From Saccostrea cucullata (lineage: Eukaryota): DNA of 64,000 nt. Within the stretch, counting starts at the first letter, position 1; each line of letters begins with the position of its first letter. The notes under the pieces were generated by a model. That model was given only the letters and a program-made list of their open reading frames with translations. It did no database searches and was not told where the DNA came from. Location: NCBI RefSeq assembly GCF_032062105.1, contig NW_026940921.1, positions 1 through 64,000 on the forward strand, written 5' to 3'. The position numbers were made by a program, and so were the translations under genes. Below, piece after piece: positions 18,630-46,414 of the stretch.

Positions 18630-21613
18630 ATTTATTTATTTATTTTTTTTTTATTTATTATTTTTTTTTTGTATACAAATTTTATTTCACAGACCTATGT
18701 TATAACACAAGAATTCCCTACTCAAATATTTATGGCAGTTGCCAGGGATGGGGCCCTGACTAAACTCCATCTAAATAAAATTACAAAAAATACTAGTGAT
18801 TCTATATCACCTCGCAGGATGATTATTGATATTGTAAGACGAATAGCGTACATAAGTAATAATAGTTACATTGTTTTTTATAAACAAATAATGTTTATAA
18901 TAGAATGTTTTTTATATATCTAAAATATAAGTAATTGTAGCGTACATAAGTAATAATAGTTACATTGTTTTTTATAAACAAATAATGTTTATAATAGAAT
19001 GTTTTTTACATATCTAAAATTTATAATTTGAAATTGAAATTATTTGAGTAATTGAAAACATAATTATATTAATTTTACAATCAATATATAAGAGGAGTAT
19101 ATGAATACACATTCCCATTGTTGTCTAAAGGGGAGATCACATACACTCGCTCAGTCCTTGGGTTCCCCTTCAGCAGCACTACTAGAGGGACTGAAACCGC
19201 TAGTAGCGGGACTTATTTAACTTATAAAACTAAATTCTAAATGTATTATTGATATACATATATGTATTTTCATACAAATACAATTTACAGTAATTTTGTA
19301 AACTTATCAATAATATCAACATTAAGTGAATAATTACAACATTTTATTACTTTGCACCAAAAAACTGTGGATTTTTTTATATTATGTAAAATATTATATT
19401 CAGTTTCATCGAGATTTTCCATTCTACAGAACATTTGTATTTATATATCTTTAATGCAATAAAGGAAATAAAATTATTCAAAAAATATGTTTTCTTATTA
19501 CATTCTAAGTAAAAACCAATAATAATGTCTTCCCATTGAATTTTAATTTTCAACACAGTGGAAGCTATATCCCAGATATATTTAACATTTCTACATTCAA
19601 ATATAAGATGTTGCATGTCTTCTACAACAGAACAGATAGAACACTTATCTGAGGTTTCTTTTTTCCATTTTACCATATATTTTTTACAACAAAGTAAATT
19701 GTGTAGTAATTTGTAATTGAATTCTGCAATGTTTTTATCTACAGCTACTTTAATCTTTTGCTGATAAATAGATTTCCACATTTCTTGATTAACATTGAAT
19801 GTTTCTCCAAGTAAACGCTGATGTTTTGGCGGAGAAAATTTCTTACTTAAAAGGACATTATAAAAAAAAAATGACACTTCTTACTTTCAATCTTACAATA
19901 GTTTCCATGAAAATTAAAATACCTTTTGTTCTTTATATTAATGAATTTATGTTGGTGTTATCCATTTTTTCTCTAATATATTTAAAAACAGAGTAGATTA
20001 TTTTATATTCACACAATATATTTGACTTTTTTTGAATTTCTTCTCCTATATTTTCGATAGTTTTAAAACCAGCATCTGAAAAGAGGTCTTTTACATATTT
20101 TATATTTTTAACCCAGTGTTTAAAGAATATCGTTTTCCCCTTAAATAAAGAGTCTATTATTCCATAATGGTTCTTGTAGAATTTCGTTTATATTCATCCT
20201 TTTTAAGTCAGGAATTTTTTACATTGATTAAAATAAATAAAAATTTCTTTATAAAACAATGGTGATCTTTTAAATGGGTCAAAGTCGTTTAGATCACTGC
20301 TGTTGGTTTTTAATATATATTCATTTTACATTATATGTCTCTAATAAATTCTCAAGGTGAGAGTGCAAAGAGTTGTGATCAGCATTATTTATAAGGCGTG
20401 GTATCCAAACAGCTTTTAATGCTTGGAACTTAGTAAGTACGTCAACTACCCCAATCCCCCCTTCTTCTATTTTGCCAATTAATGTATTCCGTTTAATCCT
20501 GTCTCTGGAGTCCCAAAGGAAGTTGAAAATTAATTAATTTTTTTTTTATTCGTTTTCTTGTGGAATAGGTAAAATAGACGCAACATAGATAAATTCACTA
20601 ATACCTAAGCTGTTTATTATTTCAGTCTTGCCAAAAATTGTGAGTTTTCTTTTTTTCCAGGATTCAAAGAGTTTTTGCATATTTTCGCATTTATCAACCC
20701 AATTTTTTCTATAGCATTCATCTTTATTTACACCTATGTATATGCCCAAACATTTAAGAGATGAAGTATTTACTTTTATACCTTCTATTTTTTCTCCGAC
20801 ACGACTCAATGCTCCTGTCAAGATGCATTCAGTTTTATCTATATTCAACTTGGATCCGCCATCGCCTTTCTAATATAAAAGAGAGATAACTGCTACTCTC
20901 TGTGAAAAACTCATTTGTTCATTTTCAAAAATATTTTTCAATGCTTCGTAAAACAGAAGTTGTATATCATTCCAAAAACGTTGATAAAATTCGTCTGTGA
21001 GACCATCTAAACCGGGCGATTTGTTAGGTTTTAGATTAAACACTGCTTCAGAACATTCTTCTGCAGAAGGAAATTGTTCACAGAAATTAGCATCGCTTTC
21101 GCTTAGTGTATTTTCCAGTTCAATTGAAGATAGATAATTGTCTATGCCATCGTCAGATATATTATTTGAAGCGTATAGATTTTCATAAAATTCACACATA
21201 TCACCTAAAATGTCATCTGTAGTCTCTATATTATTGTTATTTATCTTTAATTCTTTTATGACATTTTGTTTTTTTCTGCTTTTTTCTAAATTAAAAGAAT
21301 ATTTTGAACATTTTTCACCCTCTAATATCCATTTTGATCGTGATCTTACAAAGGCACCTTTACACTTTTTGTCATTAAGCTCATCTAATTCTCTTTCTAT
21401 TTTGCGTTTTTTATTCATGTCAATATTTTGAAAATCTGATTCTTCTATTTTATCTAATTCCTTTTCTAAAAAGTTGATTTTTTGCTTAATATTTTGACTT
21501 GATTTTTTTGCGAATCTAATAGAAAAATCTCTTGCTTTAATTTTGAAAGATTCCCACCTATCTATCGGGTTTACCTGTTGTTTTTGTAGCTCACTTATTA
21601 TATTTTTAATTCC

Positions 21614-21660
<47 letters not shown>

Positions 21661-38927: not shown

Positions 38928-40900
38928 ATGGACCGGGAGGTTAGCTCGTTCGGTCTTGGTAGGGGGGCTTTGAGACCCGAGGGGGGTTGGTACGCTCGTT
39001 CGCTGGGGGGAGACCGGAGTGGTCTATTAGGTGCCCCGTTAGAGTGCAGCCCAGGGAAAGTCCCGCCTACTAAGAGTGTGAAGTTTGTCCCAGGTGTTGC
39101 TAGTACACCTGTGCCCCAGGGGGGAGTGCCCCGGATAATGTCACTCAGTATGGGGAGGGGGACATGTCACTCACACAGGGAGCTATTTCGGAGGGTCCAG
39201 GGGAAACACCCGGATGGTCCGCTTTCTATTCCCTTATCCAGGAGCGTCAACAGATATTAGAGGGAGCGGTTGACCGGATGCAGGGGGAAATGGGTCAGAT
39301 CCACGGTGACCTTGACACTGTTAATAAGAGGGTCGACACCCTAGGTCGGGATATAGGCATGGTGAATGACAGAATGGATGTTTTTGGTCAAGATATGGGG
39401 GCCCTGAGAGGGGATATAGATGCCCTGGGGACCAGTGTGTCAAAACAGCTGGGGTCGATGGGATCTAACATAGGTGCCATGGAGACAAGTATGGGGGGCC
39501 AGTTAGGTAACATTACTCAGATGTTGGCTGGGTTAATGAAGACCAGTCAGCCCCAGTCACCCCCACCCACGCAGGATAATAGGGTCAGTCAGCCAGTAGT
39601 GACTAGTAGCCAGGGGAGTCCTTGGGTCCCTAGCGCACTACCCGGACAGCAGGTGCCTATTAGTAATCCTGTAGTGACCGCACATAGCGGGGGGTATATG
39701 CCTGTCTCTGTGGGGGGCCCTAGTGTAACCATGTATCAAGGTCAGTCCCTATCCTCACTTGGCAATGACAGTTTAGTCTCGGGATTGCCGAGCACTATTA
39801 CTTTGGGTTCATTCGCGTCAGGGGAGACCGATTGCCCAGTGCCTCCTAGCACGGGCCCACCGGTTCCGGGTCAGGTTGCATGGTGCACCCGAGCGGGTAC
39901 TTCCGCGACATTGCCCTTAGCGTCCGCGCATCCTAGTGTTGCTAACTCGAGTGGTCAGGGCGCTGGCCACTATGGTAGGTTGGTTGGGGAGTCAGTAGCA
40001 TTAGGGGGTAGTCCGTCGTTTATGCCCAGTCAGGGGGGTCTGCATAATGCAGGACAGGGACATTCCCTGATGACCACCGCGTACCAGAGCCTATTGCCTA
40101 GCTTACTTCCCGCGGGTACCCGTAGCTGCATTAGTCGAAATATTCCAGCCGAGGTCAAAGGGGTTAGATATAACGGGGACGTAGAATGGGGTCCGTTTTA
40201 CTCGAAGTTTTCTACCATTGCCGAGTACCATCAGTGGAGCGACCCCGACTCTCTGTTTGCCCTAAGTCTCACGTTAGAGGGGGCAGCCCTTAAATACTTT
40301 GACATCCTCAGGCGACGAGGCGCGCTATTAAGTTTCCGTGAGGTCGTTCTCCGGATGGAGGAGCGATTCGGTAAGACTTCTCTTAGAGCCGCCTCACAGC
40401 TGGAATTTAATTCGATCAACCAGCGGGCGGACGAAGCTATTGAGCAATGGGGAGATAGGGTGATGGACACCGCCCAGAAAGCGTTCGGTGGCGGCACCTC
40501 GCCAGAGGTCTTCCAGGAGCAAATTATTGTCCGTTTTGCTCTTGGGTGTAATGATGGGGAGGCGGGGCAACAGTTGATCAATAATCCCCCGGGAACTCTC
40601 GAGGAGGCAATTAAAAGGGTAAAGACGTATCAACTTAGCCGTAGAGCTTTAGCCCGCCGTCCGCGGGCAGTCAGATCGCTTTCTAGAGACCGGAGTAAGT
40701 CACCAAGTTCAGGCTTTTATCGCGCCAGGTCAGACTCTGAGAACCAAGACTTTTTCGTGGCACGCAGAGAGCGCTCGGAATCTAGGGACCGCTCTAATCG
40801 TGCCAGCGGAGACCGTCCTTATCGTGCCAGCAGGGACCGTCCTTATCGTGCCAGCGAGGACCGTTCCCCAGATCGTGCCAGCGGAGAGTCCGTCCGCTGA
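38928..40900 (+). CDS. gag: Gypsy gag-like ORF (probable 1-nt frameshift in the G-run near 39160; C-terminus truncated)
   Basis: Heptad coiled coil, low-complexity linker, capsid-like region RYNGDVEWGPFYSKF...Q.ADEAIEQWGDRV...TLEEAI, then RS-rich repeats. No CCHC knuckle is seen. Confidence 0.8.
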
Positions 40901-42848
40901 GGGGGGTAGTTGTGGTTCATCTACCCTTCGTCAGGCCATTGTTTCTAGTCCTTGGGAGGATACCCCTTTGTCTGTAAGTGCGTCTGCACTACCCAGTTTC
41001 CAGATTAATGTCAGTGGGGTGTCGAGTTTAGATCCCAAGATTGAGACAGTTAGTCCTCAAGTCTGTCAGGTAACAGGTGACACTGCGGGAATTTCCTTAT
41101 CTTCATACAGTCCCGCAGACCTAGCTCAGAAACAGAAGCATGACAAAGCTATAGTGTACCTAAGACAGTACTTAGAGTCTGGGGACCTACCTACCGAAAG
41201 TGACTTAATTATCTGTAGTCCGGAAGAGAAGTGCTATCTTCTGGAGCGAGACTGCTTTTATCTCGACGAGACAGCAGTTGTTTGGCGAGAACCGGATGAC
41301 TCGGATGCGCCCCGTCGGCTCCTAGTGCCGCGGAGTCTCAGATCCGAGATTATGCACTTATGTCATGACATACCGTCCTCTGGTCACCAGGGAATCCAGA
41401 GAACTAAAGAACGCCTTAAACAACAGTTCTACTGGTGGCGGATGACAAAAGACATTAAATTATATGTCAAGACCTGCGACGTATGTGCCAGGAATAAGCG
41501 TGGTTCGTTGCCAAACAGGTCAGAGCTCAAGAGCTACCAAGCTGGAAGCCCGATGGAGAGGGTACATTTAGACTTTCTCGGGCCGCTTCCCCGAACTGAT
41601 AGCGGGAACGAATACATACTCATGATGGTAGATAACTTTACCAAGTGGGTAGAGTGTATTCCGCTTCCGTCTCAGACAGCGGAAGTCACCGCCCGTTCCG
41701 CTATCAATGACTTCTTTTCTCGATTTGGCTATCCTTACGAAATCTTTACAGATCAGGGCCGCAATTTTGAGAGCGAGCTGTTCTGTAAGATTTGTGCCAT
41801 GTTAGGGATCCATAAAGCCAGGACCACACCCTACCGTCCGTCAGGGAATGGCCAGGTAGAGCGCTACAACCGCACTCTAATGGACGCGGTTCGTTGCTAC
41901 GTAGATGGCCAGCCCAAGTCATGGGATAAGTACTTAGGCCCATTGGCTGGAGCGTTGCGGTCCGCGGTAAACCACCATACTGGATACACTCCAAATCGTC
42001 TCATGCTGGGTAGAGAAGTAAATATACCAGCAACCTTGATGTTCGCCCCACCGCCTTCCACGTCTTTTCAAAATGGGGAGGAGGGTGAGGTAGACAAGTA
42101 TGTACGTGATCTAGAAGAAAATGTTCAGAGCGCGCACGACATTGCCCGCGGTAAATTAAAAGTCGCGCAAAAGGCAATGAAAAGGTCTCATGACATTAAG
42201 GTCCGTACCAGTAAGTTCAAGGTCGGAGACTTGGTCTACTGGCGCCGCAATGCGGGAAAAAAGGTAGAATCAGTATGGAGGGGTCCTGGGATAATAACCG
42301 AAGCCAAATCGGACACAATATTTGTGGTTAAATCTCGGCGCGAGGTCAAGGTCATGCACCATGACAAACTGAAAAGGTGCGAGTCCAGGCAACTCCCCAA
42401 ATGGTTAGTAAACTATAGGAATAAGTTGCCCGGACAGTCAGTAGCCCGAGATGGGGATAGTTCTCCTATACATGAAGTGGTTGCACCGCTGGGCACCGTA
42501 GACCCAGGAATTAGTCCTGAGAGCCCGGGGAGTGGGGGTCACTCAAAAGTTAGCCCCAAACCAGCGGAGTCATTAGGTCCATATATGGGTACTCGTAAAC
42601 GGGTTAGGGAAAGAGTAGAGCAATCTAAACAACCCCCATCGCCCAAAAGACCTAAAGCCACTAGGGGGACTAGAGCCAAGAAATATTGTGTTTGTCTACA
42701 GTCTAATCCCAAGGGGATGATGGTGCAGTGCGACAACTGTCGGGACTGGTTTCACCCAGGGTGTGTGGGTATAAGGGAGGATTATGCCAAATCTGTACCT
42801 CAATATATCTGCCCCGAATGTAGTCCCGTCGGAGTCGACACTGGGTAG
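40900..42848 (+). CDS. pol: pol remnant: integrase (H2C2, DDE core, GPY/F-like) with C-terminal PHD finger; PR, RT and RNase H absent
   Basis: CHDIPSSGHQG...CDVC, VHLDFLGP, FTDQGRNFES, NGQVERYNRTL, WRGPG, then YCVC...MMVQCDNCRDWFHPGC...YICPEC. Confidence 0.93.
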
Positions 42849-42999
42849 TTAGAGTAGTTAGGTTTCCGCAATGATGTGGAAGCGTGTGCAAGTTTTAGTA
42901 GGTTAACATCAGGTTTAGGTAGACTTGTACATGAATTAGTTAGTAAACCTATGTCTAACGGGTTTGATAAACTTACATGTCTTTGTAGGTTCGTAAGTG

Positions 43000-44877
43000 A
43001 TGTCTAAGGAAGTTGATGAGTTTGTCTTCGAGGGCGGAAGCTCCGCCGAGGAAGAGATGCGGGACCGCAGTGACGCGGATTCCGAAGTGGCCGCACCGGC
43101 GAGCGACGCAGAGACGCCGGAGGGAGACAACGGGAGGCCCAGAGGTCGAGGAATCATTACAGGGATTCCAGATGTGCCGCCTCCATTGCCGCCGGCTGGA
43201 CGCGGAGCGCCTATCCGACCAGAGCCCTCTTGGTCGGAGATTGTTGAGCTGAGCCTTGGGAGTCAGGAGCCTGCGAAGGCGCAGGAACCCAGCGCACCCC
43301 GACCCCTGGGAGTTGGGCGTGCGGGGTTGACCAGTTATGCCAGGTTAAGGTTATTACCCGCAGGTGCGGAGGGGGCGGGAGCCCGCCGTATCAGAGCCAG
43401 AGGTACCCGCAGGTGTGCGGTCCATGCTTGTGGAATGAAGTTTTCGGGGGCAACCCCGATGTTGGCTCACATTTGGGAGTACCACACTAGGGGGGTGGAT
43501 GACCCCCAGGTGTTCAGGGATTTTCTCCTGCAGTTAGCTCGTTTGCTCAGGGTGTCCCCTGAGGGTACCAGCGACTTTGGGATGCTGGGTCATCTCCGCC
43601 AGTGGGCGGTCTGGCGAATGGGAGAAGTCGAATGGGGGTTTTCCGGTAGTGTCAGAGATCTGATGATCCGTTTCTCTGCTCATCTGGGTATTGTGCCGCC
43701 CCTAGAGTCGGAGATCCGCAGGGTGCGGATGGGGGAGTTGCCCCATGTTGCAATGCTCATACACCCCCGGGTGATAGCTATTATGTTAAACGGTGCCAAC
43801 ATTATGGGGACTTGGAACTGTATGGAACGATCCCGCTCTAATATAGCGGAGTCTTGGGAAGACGAGTTATTGCCGGAGGCCCTTGGTCAGCAGCGAGGTG
43901 GTTCTTGTACCGGACAGCCTTCCGAGCTCCAGGGAGAGCTTGGTGACCACGACTGTGGTAGCGGAGAGCCCGCAACCACCAGTTGTTGTTGTGGTTCCGC
44001 CGGAGGAAGGCGCCAGCGGCGGAGCGCCGCGGCCTTCTTGGTCAGCGGACCCCCAGGTCCCTCTGATACAGGTTGTTGACTGTTTGTGGTTCCCCCGGAG
44101 GATCCCGGGTGGTGAGGGACAGTCGGTGGGGGAGTTGTTGCGCGCAGACCACCGCCCCGTCGATGTACGAGTGGAGCTGGTGGGTGGTTGCGTAGCGTAT
44201 GGTTTCCGAGAGGAGCCCCTCTCGGACTTAGGCAATCCGCAGTGGGTGGTAGCTCAGGGGATTTCCCCTGGGTCTGCGGACTTTGTTCTGCAGTCCGATG
44301 TAGCCCGCGTTGTGGGAGTGTGTAGAAGCAGGAACTTTGTGTTAGGAGAGATTGGACTGGATTATTCCGGTCCAGCCACTCAGAGGTGCCAGAGGTTTGT
44401 GCTGGCGGAGTTCTTCCGCCAGGCCACGTTCAGTACCGGGATGATACTGGTTTTGAGGGGGACAGCGGACGACCCTTTGGGCCGCGTTCCTACTCAAGAT
44501 TGCCTTACTCTTATGGACGGGATGTTTGTTCCCATCCTAGTACCTATCTTTATCCGTGGTTTCACTGGTGGACAGAGCAGGTGAAGCTCTGGGTGGAGTC
44601 TGGCAGACCCGTATTCTTTGGAATCGGAGGTCAGATCGCGGATATGTCCGCGACCCAGTTGTCGGGAGTCAGAGCTATTCCTACCGACCGACTGCTAGTC
44701 GAGTCGGATAGTCCTGAGTTTCCTTGTGGAGTTGAAGCGCCGATGGGCCCCGGGCACATCGGAGAAGTGTACCGCAGAGTAGCCGCAGCGAGAGGACAGG
44801 ACGTCGCCTTGCTAGCGGGCCTGGTTTTTAGGAACTTCAGGGTGTTCTTTGGGCCTCAGTTGAGGGGGTCGTTATAA
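43000..44877 (+). CDS. Gypsy ORF3: acidic N-terminus, C2H2-like motif, C-terminal TatD-fold domain (two 1-nt frameshifts at ~43880 and ~44570)
   Basis: The joined frames give VLGEIGLDYS, MILVLRG, IFIRGFTGG, VFFGIGG, IPTDRLLVESDSP and NFRVFFG in TatD order. A strong splice acceptor precedes it at 42987-42988. Confidence 0.8.
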
Positions 44878-45286
44878 ATACTTGCGCTGTAGCCGGGAAA
44901 TGATGCCCGGATGTACTTACCTGAGTTTGCCTGCATCGGGAGCAGATAGTCCTGATGGCCGGAACCAGCCGCACTATAGATGTCGCCTTTGATGTACTGA
45001 GCAGAGCCTATCCAGATGTATCAGCGATGGACCACTTGGTGGATGTTAACAACGATGGACCTCGTGGTGTTCCGAGACGACGCGGAGGATGAGTGACTGT
45101 GTGATAGGAACTGTTAAATCTGTGATTTTTATTATTATAGAGACATTAATGTTTAAAGTTTCATTATTGTGTGAATGCATGTGTATGTATGTAAGATAGG
45201 CCCTGCTAGGTGTTAATTATTACTATTGTTTGTATATTATAGTTTGTCCCATTGTAATTACTTTGCGGGCTGGGACGCCCTCTTTC

Positions 45287-45300
45287 AAAATGGGGAGGAG
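45287..45300 (+). promoter_or_regulatory. Polypurine tract
   Basis: AAAATGGGGAGGAG immediately precedes the 3' LTR. Confidence 0.9.
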
Positions 45301-45560
45301 TGTAGTGGTCCTGGAGGAGCTGGGAACGATTTCTCTAGTAACCTCCAGACCACGTGCCCGGCAGTGATGCGGGCTGTGACGTAATCGTCACTCTCTCTGA
45401 TTGCTGATTGTCGACCCGTTCAGACGTGTTTACCAATCCTCTGTAAGTCACTGTATTATTGTTGATATATTATTGGCGACCACTAATAAACGTGCGGAAT
45501 TTTACCATAGTGTTTCTGTATCCGCCATCACAGACATGTAAACATAGCAGAAATACTATA
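45301..45560 (+). repeat. 3' LTR (260 bp)
   Basis: Direct repeat of 31130-31389, followed by the CAAG TSD. Confidence 0.97.
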
Positions 45561-46414
45561 CAAGGGTCATTGGTTGAAAAGATTGGTGATGATGTGAAGT
45601 AAGAGATAATGGAACCTTTACTATGTCTTTTATTCTGGTATTGTAGATAAAATTTCACCGATTGACTAGGTCAATAAAAAATCTGCAAAAATAAAAAATA
45701 TAAAATAAAATCCGCCCGCCCGCCCCGATTTTTAAAAAAATTCGGATGAGAATCTAGCAATTTATTTATTATGGCCTAATGTTATCTACACTAAACTTTC
45801 CTTCGGCTAACATTAATGCATACATGCTTTATCGCCTTAGACTGTGTTTGAAAATAATTTTATCTCCTCTTTTTGAGTAGCTTGATCAATTTATTCTGAG
45901 TATGTCGTATAGTTAATCTTATTGCTCCTCATTCAGTAAATATGGTATTCTATATTCTAGCACTCGTCTTGAATCTTAGGTCTCTAGTTGGAGTTAATTT
46001 ATGTACTATATTAAAGCGAAATACCATTCTTCTCTCTTAATCAATCCTTCGATTTTAGCAAGATTCTTCTGCATTGATAACTGTTTTAGGTCTCCAAGAT
46101 CTTGCATCATCTTACACACAAGGTACTTTATTTACCATCTTTCAATATATCAAATTTCTGGGCATTGCTATGGTTGCTGGTCTTTCTCTTTTTATGACGA
46201 CTTCCTTGAACGTTTTTGCTTTTTTTTTTTGTTGATTTTGTTTAGAGTTAAACACAACTTTTTTGTCGTTTCTCATTTTTCCTGTTAACTTTGGACTTAT
46301 TTCATAACGAAAAGAATGTAGGGCATAATTTTGTTAAGTGCCTCCTTAAATCTAAAATTTCGATCAAACCTTTTTGTTCTGCAAAGAGAAATCAGTAGCC
46401 CAGTAAATAAGAAA

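Follow-up and report, generated by a model that had tools for sequence, protein, structure and literature searches.

Some retroelements depend on host proteins to arrive at active chromatin (TFIIIB for Ty3, BET proteins for MLV), and chromoviruses carry a reader of their own that leads them to silent chromatin. If real, an integrase with its own reader of active promoters would fill the missing case among site-selective retroelements. Chromoviruses such as MAGGY, for which targeting was demonstrated, have a Ty3/Gypsy Pol in which a histone reader, a chromodomain recognizing heterochromatin marks, is located at the integrase C-terminus after the GPY/F-SH3 part (PMC6673714; bioRxiv 10.1101/2021.11.30.470311). 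PHD fingers have been described as widespread on retrotransposons (PMC6673714) and as often fused with integrase and reverse transcriptase (RT) domains (bioRxiv 10.1101/2021.11.30.470311). An engineered precedent is the ING2 PHD fused to the integrase-binding domain of LEDGF, which shifts HIV-1 integration to transcription start sites (review PMC8149907), indicating that the principle of PHD tethering works.

The window analysed here, a stretch of 64,000 nucleotides from Saccostrea cucullata (NW_026940921.1, positions 1 to 64,000), contains a Gypsy element with a histone reader at the same place in Pol. Instead of a chromodomain, it carries a PHD finger of the H3K4me2/3 class, so that the target predicted from the sequence is the opposite kind of chromatin. 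The finger is strongly conserved across a broad clade of animal Gypsy elements with a chromovirus-like build, in which the reader would point to active and not to silent chromatin.

Structure of the retroelement

The element is a young Ty3/Gypsy LTR element, recently inserted and internally deleted, which extends over 31130-45560 and measures 7145 bp once a nested Mutator-like transposon is subtracted (coordinates are those of the window, on the forward strand unless marked as reverse). Its two 260-bp LTRs (31130..31389 and 45301..45560) are 100% identical, with TG...TA ends in which the final TA is unlike the usual CA, and are flanked by copies of the target-site duplication CAAG (31126..31129 and 45561..45564); junction reads of the empty site were found in all four of the read runs examined. 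A TGG motif one base past the 5' LTR (31391..31401) is a candidate primer-binding site by its sequence, and a polypurine tract can be read directly at 45288..45300. No Rfam family reached threshold within the window. A domesticated host gene was ruled out by the identical LTRs and the multi-copy family, and a Ginger transposon by the LTRs and gag of the window element and the RT of its relatives. For the RT of P0002, a relative from S. cucullata, the best solved match was the Ty3 Gag-Pol (E 3.3e-74, versus 1.3e-22 at best for retroviral RTs), an assignment by similarity and not by a reference tree.

The gag frame (39104..40900) contains a capsid-like domain, with weak Pfam matches to PNMA / Retrotrans_gag and 47% identity over 170 aa to the gag of P0121, and has no zinc knuckle in the window copy. 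P0121 is complete, with knuckle, protease, RT, RNase H, integrase and PHD in a single frame, including the Pol order protease-RT-RNase H-integrase; the window copy is without protease, RT and RNase H. P0002 and P0473, the RT-bearing relatives nearest to the window copy (86% identity each), begin to align to the window only at 40875. Together with the completeness of P0121, this indicates that the window copy lost its middle, with an approximate junction at 40870..40880 at which the Gag knuckle, protease, RT and RNase H are gone; lacking these enzymes, it is non-autonomous. The junction sits in a short repeat unit at the gag end, suggesting that the deletion arose by a jump between short homologies during copying; no reads or contigs bridging it were found in the runs examined. 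Since the LTRs are identical and RT is missing, the window copy was probably made recently in trans by an autonomous relative, and it is possible instead that the deletion followed insertion, rather than being copied already deleted. The integrase frame comes directly after gag but in a different reading frame, and its first Met does not occur before aa 234; this copy is probably unable to make the integrase-PHD protein via the usual Gag-Pol route.

The nested Mutator-like DNA transposon (31444..38720, reverse strand; 7.3 kb) lies just behind the primer site, has terminal inverted repeats and a 9-bp duplication, and is not part of the retroelement. It contains a MULE transposase frame (33073-35694) and a separate frame (35565-36347) that combines a Pygo-like PHD with an OTU-like protease. 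The site thus holds a stack of two PHD-bearing transposons that are unrelated to each other. Elsewhere in the window, a zf-RVT fragment of a non-LTR retroelement (19380-19880, reverse strand; E 1e-6) and a 248-aa frame (20873-21616, reverse strand) with a weak MCM2_N match (E 0.002, below the cut-off), probably acidic low complexity, were found. A near-identical stretch is duplicated at 3015-4642 and 9802-11811, ~7.2 kb apart, and satellite-like arrays have periods of ~146, 108, 90, 42, 39 and 27 bp.

The integrase ends in a PHD finger

The frame 40653-42848 comprises 731 codons without a stop and contains both Integrase_H2C2 (E 2.9e-22) and rve (E 1.3e-12) Pfam domains, with the PHD finger at its end. 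The integrase (41322..42398) has an HHCC zinc domain, a DDE core with its D-D-E motifs at 41565, 41748 and 41847, a GPY/F-like motif and an SH3-like C-terminal domain. The GPY/F-like motif that the initial annotation had reported is the WRGPG at 42276. That annotation had also placed an intact C4HC3 finger at the end of the integrase ORF, and the translation of 42684..42821 (138 bases) agrees residue by residue: it yields a 46-residue finger from the Tyr before Cys1 through Cys8, matching Pfam PHD PF00628 at aa 679-723 of the frame (E 3.5e-10; 40.2 bits, cut-off 24). The finger is indeed C-terminal, but eight more residues follow its last Cys. The Tyr, Met and Trp described earlier as an aromatic cage are all present, with an Asn at the variable fourth cage position; the Met lies, more precisely, three residues before Cys3. 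A chance fusion produced by the assembly or the gene model was ruled out by the stop-free frame and by 190 relatives with a finger.

Between the integrase C-terminal domain and the finger is a linker (42399..42683), modelled with low confidence (pLDDT <50 in parts) and probably disordered, which includes a basic patch. Across the family, the stretch between the C-terminal domain and Cys1 is 38 residues long in the median (quartiles 37-41, range 23-262, n = 156), and the window linker, with 110, far exceeds it. The basic linker noted earlier is thus real in the window but is not a family trait, and the patch belongs to a sub-lineage.

The finger marks a clade of animal Gypsy elements

Two protein searches with an integrase plus PHD query matched 528 of 5659 and 489 of 4141 candidates, and the best 120 of each were examined. 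Among the matches listed, a strict C4HC3 pattern was found within the last 300 residues in 110 of 120 long proteins and in 80 of 120 shorter ones; four of the 10 long proteins without a finger had broken remnants in their tails. Absence from related intact elements would have spoken against the steering proposed in the initial annotation; the finger was present in these 110 long Pol relatives.

Because these queries favoured PHD-bearing matches, the search was repeated with the integrase core alone, against 50%-identity representatives, and the best 150 were examined. A PHD followed the core in 17 of the 150 representatives listed. Fifteen of those listed had at least 50% identity; six stop short, and seven of the nine others have the PHD. 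For the tree, 40 of the 150 were dropped (partial core, <35% identity or multi-element models), and the window and 16 earlier matches were added, 12 of them chosen as PHD-bearing and four without it. The window falls in one 30-row clade (SH-aLRT 100), with support of 100/97 on a 60-row subset whose bootstrap was not quite settled. Within this clade the finger occurs in 13 of 15 unbiased representatives, compared with three of 95 outside (representatives listed). Clade hosts with the finger include bivalves and gastropods (Saccostrea, Ostrea, Pinctada, Mytilus, Pecten, Haliotis and Nucella), echinoderms (Lytechinus, Acanthaster and Anneissia) and a crayfish (Procambarus), and the clade rows from Elysia and Ptychodera are without it.

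These data also bear on two other readings: that the PHD was captured and persists as a passenger, only for its folded zinc module, or that the pattern is an artefact of match selection. Such readings gain something from the PHD content and ranking of the first two queries, from the four PHD-less rows among the 30 in the clade and from the clade member P0341, whose finger is without the cage. Yet the PHD-free search returned the same clade, and its 17 fingers keep the cage Trp in 16 and the Met in 15 cases, by reading of the output. Moreover, the Pygo-like PHD of the nested Mutator, a one-case control, has the same zinc ligands and no cage Met, so the fold itself does not force that residue. 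We consider passenger status or selection artefact very improbable. Close PHD-less sister lineages are also present in the tree, and the finger is thus dispensable for integration itself.

Three PHD-bearing rows lie outside the clade. P0332 and P0431 have a similar finger, and the finger of P0417, a complete Gag-Pol outside the main clade and a single-member cluster, is ING-like (20 of its 23 matches are ING-family, best E 1.8e-14). A tree constrained to keep every PHD-bearing integrase in a single clade could not be rejected (p-AU 0.268), so the integrase tree lends no support to repeated capture, and the only argument for a second one is the finger type of P0417, which may represent an independent PHD capture.

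Several clade entries have labels that can mislead annotation ('COMPASS component SPP1', 'tatD' or symbiont proteins). P0037, P0056, P0184, P0214 and P0255 are labelled as 'COMPASS component SPP1' (Mytilus) or as bacterial symbiont proteins (Thiodiazotropha, Sedimenticola), most likely through mislabelling or host DNA. The PHD-bearing Pol relative P0126 also has a precomputed PF01885 (TPT1/KptA RNA 2'-phosphotransferase) domain. A metagenome locus scan gave five short loci from 43 pattern matches; one of them, L004, is decayed, and no third ORF was seen in it.

Conservation of the cage and similarity to H3K4me readers

Of the 190 fingers among the matches listed, 182 combine all three cage residues: Tyr/Phe before Cys1, Met three residues before Cys3 and Trp two residues before the His. 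For conservation analysis, 180 fingers of modal length were thinned to 115 that are at most 70% alike, with a mean identity of 47%. Of these, 115 have the Trp, 113 the Met and 109 the Tyr/Phe, and Trp and Met are the two best-kept columns apart from the zinc ligands. The fourth wall is Asp, Trp, Tyr or Phe in 102. Acids stand at two likely Arg2 positions in 101 (after Cys3) and 100 fingers, and we take these residues to be the receivers of H3 Arg2. In ING proteins, the fourth wall of the cage is a small residue. The Asn of the window finger at this wall is shared by two of the 190 fingers, and several of its loop positions also depart from the family. The Trp is a conserved cage position (PMC3793974), and changing the Met to Ala weakened TAF3 binding more than 100-fold (PMC8246079). 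The earlier inclusion of BPTF among the Met-cage readers did not stand, since its cage-back position is described as an aromatic residue, not Met (PMC8246079).

The top solved-structure sequence matches were EBS, CFP1, PHF2, SHL, PHF8, BPTF, KDM7A and DIDO (E 5e-13 to 3e-10, among the best 60 of 74). The C-terminal 229 residues were modelled with AlphaFold2 from 50 alignment rows; the finger (pLDDT ~92) and the SH3-like domain were confident and the linker was unsure. The model finger superposed on the H3K4me3 complexes of BPTF (1.5 A, 49 columns), PHF2 (1.8 A) and DIDO (1.3 A); for the SH3-like part, the superposed structures were integrases of retroviruses and of Ty3. With sequence and fold matches in agreement and a strongly conserved cage, the proposed assignment to the H3K4me2/3-reader class was borne out, and the family finger quite probably reads methyl-lysine, namely H3K4me2/3.

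PHDs of the same class bind non-histone peptides too, as in PHF2 with VRK1 (7m10, 8f8y), and the clade co-occurs with a large third ORF; in line with both, the ligand of the pocket could be a methyl-lysine outside histones or a peptide resembling H3, supplied by a host factor or by the ORF3/TatD protein of the element itself. Against this, the putative Arg2-receiving acids are kept together with the cage, and nearly all the top structural matches are H3K4me complexes. We therefore regard such a ligand as improbable and retain methylated H3K4 as the expected one.

A third ORF with a TatD-like domain

Downstream of the integrase, a third ORF region (42997..44877) extends over three frames (42997-44079, 43847-44584 and 44326-44877) and contains a C2H2-like motif followed by a degenerate TatD-like domain (Pfam TatD E 7.3e-10 and 0.041). 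The TatD metal-binding motif consists of His-x-His, Glu, His, His and Asp. By alignment, the window pieces keep the Glu and the Asp, and the His ligands are missing. A search with the TatD region returned 64 proteins from 7008 candidates, of which 61 match the window; all six ligands of the motif are present in 51 of the 64, and the C2H2-like motif likewise in 51. The N-terminal part of the window ORF had no Pfam match and no significant pairwise match to P0246, and its only Atlas leads, below 0.9, were C2H2-like; its homology to the zinc-finger region of the relatives is thus argued from motif pattern and position. Each of the two DNA runs yielded contigs that omit 0.9-1.2 kb of the third ORF (43047-44230), where read depth also drops, indicating that many copies are without its middle.

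Co-occurrence of the finger with TatD, raised in the initial annotation, holds. In the Acanthaster gene model P0117, integrase, PHD, C2H2-like motif and TatD are joined, and in P0245 a partial PHD is joined to TatD. In addition, four of 40 TatD proteins on contigs shorter than ~110 kb have a contig of exactly the same length and of the same source as that of a PHD-bearing Pol; 0.18 length matches were expected by chance under jitter, and four were reached in 0 of 20000 trials. These matches point indirectly to linkage of the TatD ORF with the PHD-bearing Pol. As guesses at its role, TatD could trim or protect cDNA, or clean up single-stranded by-products.

Target site, related copies and expression

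The visible target is a ~440-bp high-copy AT-rich repeat, with the element near its middle (30908-31129 and 45561-45777). This repeat is MITE-like, with 34-bp inverted ends (30908-30941 and 45744-45777) and GC-box-like motifs. Read depth in the bin over the right flank was 2970 and 5681, and mostly 50-660 inside the element. The flanks have 29-34% GC. Their CpG observed/expected ratios, 0.71-1.02, do not distinguish a promoter from repeat DNA. Among window ORFs of at least 142 aa, none was recognised as a host gene. The target site is no evident promoter, and a single surviving insertion is weak evidence in either direction.

Related copies covered 30 of 30 bins in each of two DNA runs. In RNA, 160 of 12.8 million reads matched, over 23 of 30 bins, and 96 of them were only 90-95% alike; being scarce and mostly this divergent, they are no proof of expression from the window copy.

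Proposed mechanism

What is established is the domain architecture, the existence of the clade, the conservation of the cage and the agreement in fold. The explanation that we consider best, with a probability of roughly 55%, is a marine-invertebrate Ty3/Gypsy lineage whose integrase-PHD tethers it to H3K4-methylated nucleosomes and biases its insertion. In complete elements, the protease would release an integrase-PHD protein, and several PHDs would hang off the integration complex via short flexible linkers. Each PHD would grip an H3 tail, whose methyl-Lys4 would enter the Tyr-Met-Trp pocket while its Arg2 meets the acidic residues. The complex would thereby be tethered to H3K4-methylated nucleosomes, and insertion biased to promoter-proximal or otherwise open chromatin. 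Whether such a PHD-driven bias is real seems to us an even bet.

The finger might also read H3K4me2/3 without any choice of site, serving as a chromatin tether, in nuclear retention, or in action on the element's own chromatin or episomal cDNA. That would account equally well for cage conservation and would fit the unremarkable target site, and the same alternative was raised for a Copia MBD by De Mendoza 2019 (PMC6673714). Engineered PHD tethers, however, do relocate integration (PMC8149907), and the linker length is tightly kept, at 37-41 aa between the quartiles of 156 members, which suggests a geometric role beside the integrase. We judge a role confined to tethering rather unlikely, and prefer tethering that also biases insertion.

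A wider statement would be that a large animal Ty3/Gypsy clade targets H3K4me3 promoters by its own integrase-fused reader and travels with a TatD nuclease, and that related integrases took up a reader more than once (the ING-type P0417); taken as a whole it is tentative, somewhat short of even odds. Existing genomes of oyster, mussel and sea urchin would allow the case to be tested, with PHD-less sister families as a control in the same host. If true, such elements would be predicted to supply more than their share of regulatory insertions.

Comparison with known systems

No account of the clade, its cage or a TatD in a retrotransposon was found in the literature covered, which lay outside Repbase, GyDB and most subscription papers, and prior notice of the clade in print is quite possible. 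Two mollusc and annelid LTR surveys (PMC6238403 and PMC8556966) have no 'PHD' in their main text, none of the motifs searched was found in the PMC6238403 supplements (C-clade, MolGy), and term look-up gave nothing relevant in PMC5408684, PMC3286476, PMC5890265 and bioRxiv 10.64898/2026.05.21.726589. Supplementary Table 6 of bioRxiv 10.1101/2021.11.30.470311 could list members of the clade. The animal transposon-PHD fusions described there likewise combine a PHD with integrase or RT domains and are read as recognizing H3K4me, but their named example is Pygo-like, on cnidarian retrotransposons, whereas the finger described here is CFP1/PHF2/DIDO-like.

Chlamydomonas Gypsy-7a_cRei is a comparable element, and REM1, cited in PMC9940879 and PMC6673714, is grouped with it here. 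Gypsy-7a_cRei is also a Gypsy Gag-Pol with a PHD, for which an effect on insertion sites was proposed, but it belongs to a green alga and its PHD is listed as lying between RNase H and integrase, not at the integrase end as here; the portion of that source covered contains no analysis of the cage (PMC9940879). Ginger1-9_HM also has a Gypsy-like integrase with GPY/F and a C-terminal PHD, but it is a DNA transposon with inverted repeats and a Ulp1 domain, without LTRs or RT, and one of 16 tabulated families (PMC2836005). In the ING2-PHD/LEDGF system an H3K4me3-reading PHD is likewise tied to integrase, artificially and via a host cofactor, whereas here it is a natural, covalent part of the integrase (PMC8149907).

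The earlier comparison with chromoviruses holds for the position of the domain, but the window element is itself no chromovirus: Pfam scans up to E 1 found no chromodomain, and a PHD instead. If the proposed targeting is true, these elements would be the mirror image of chromoviruses and a natural counterpart of PHD-retargeted HIV.
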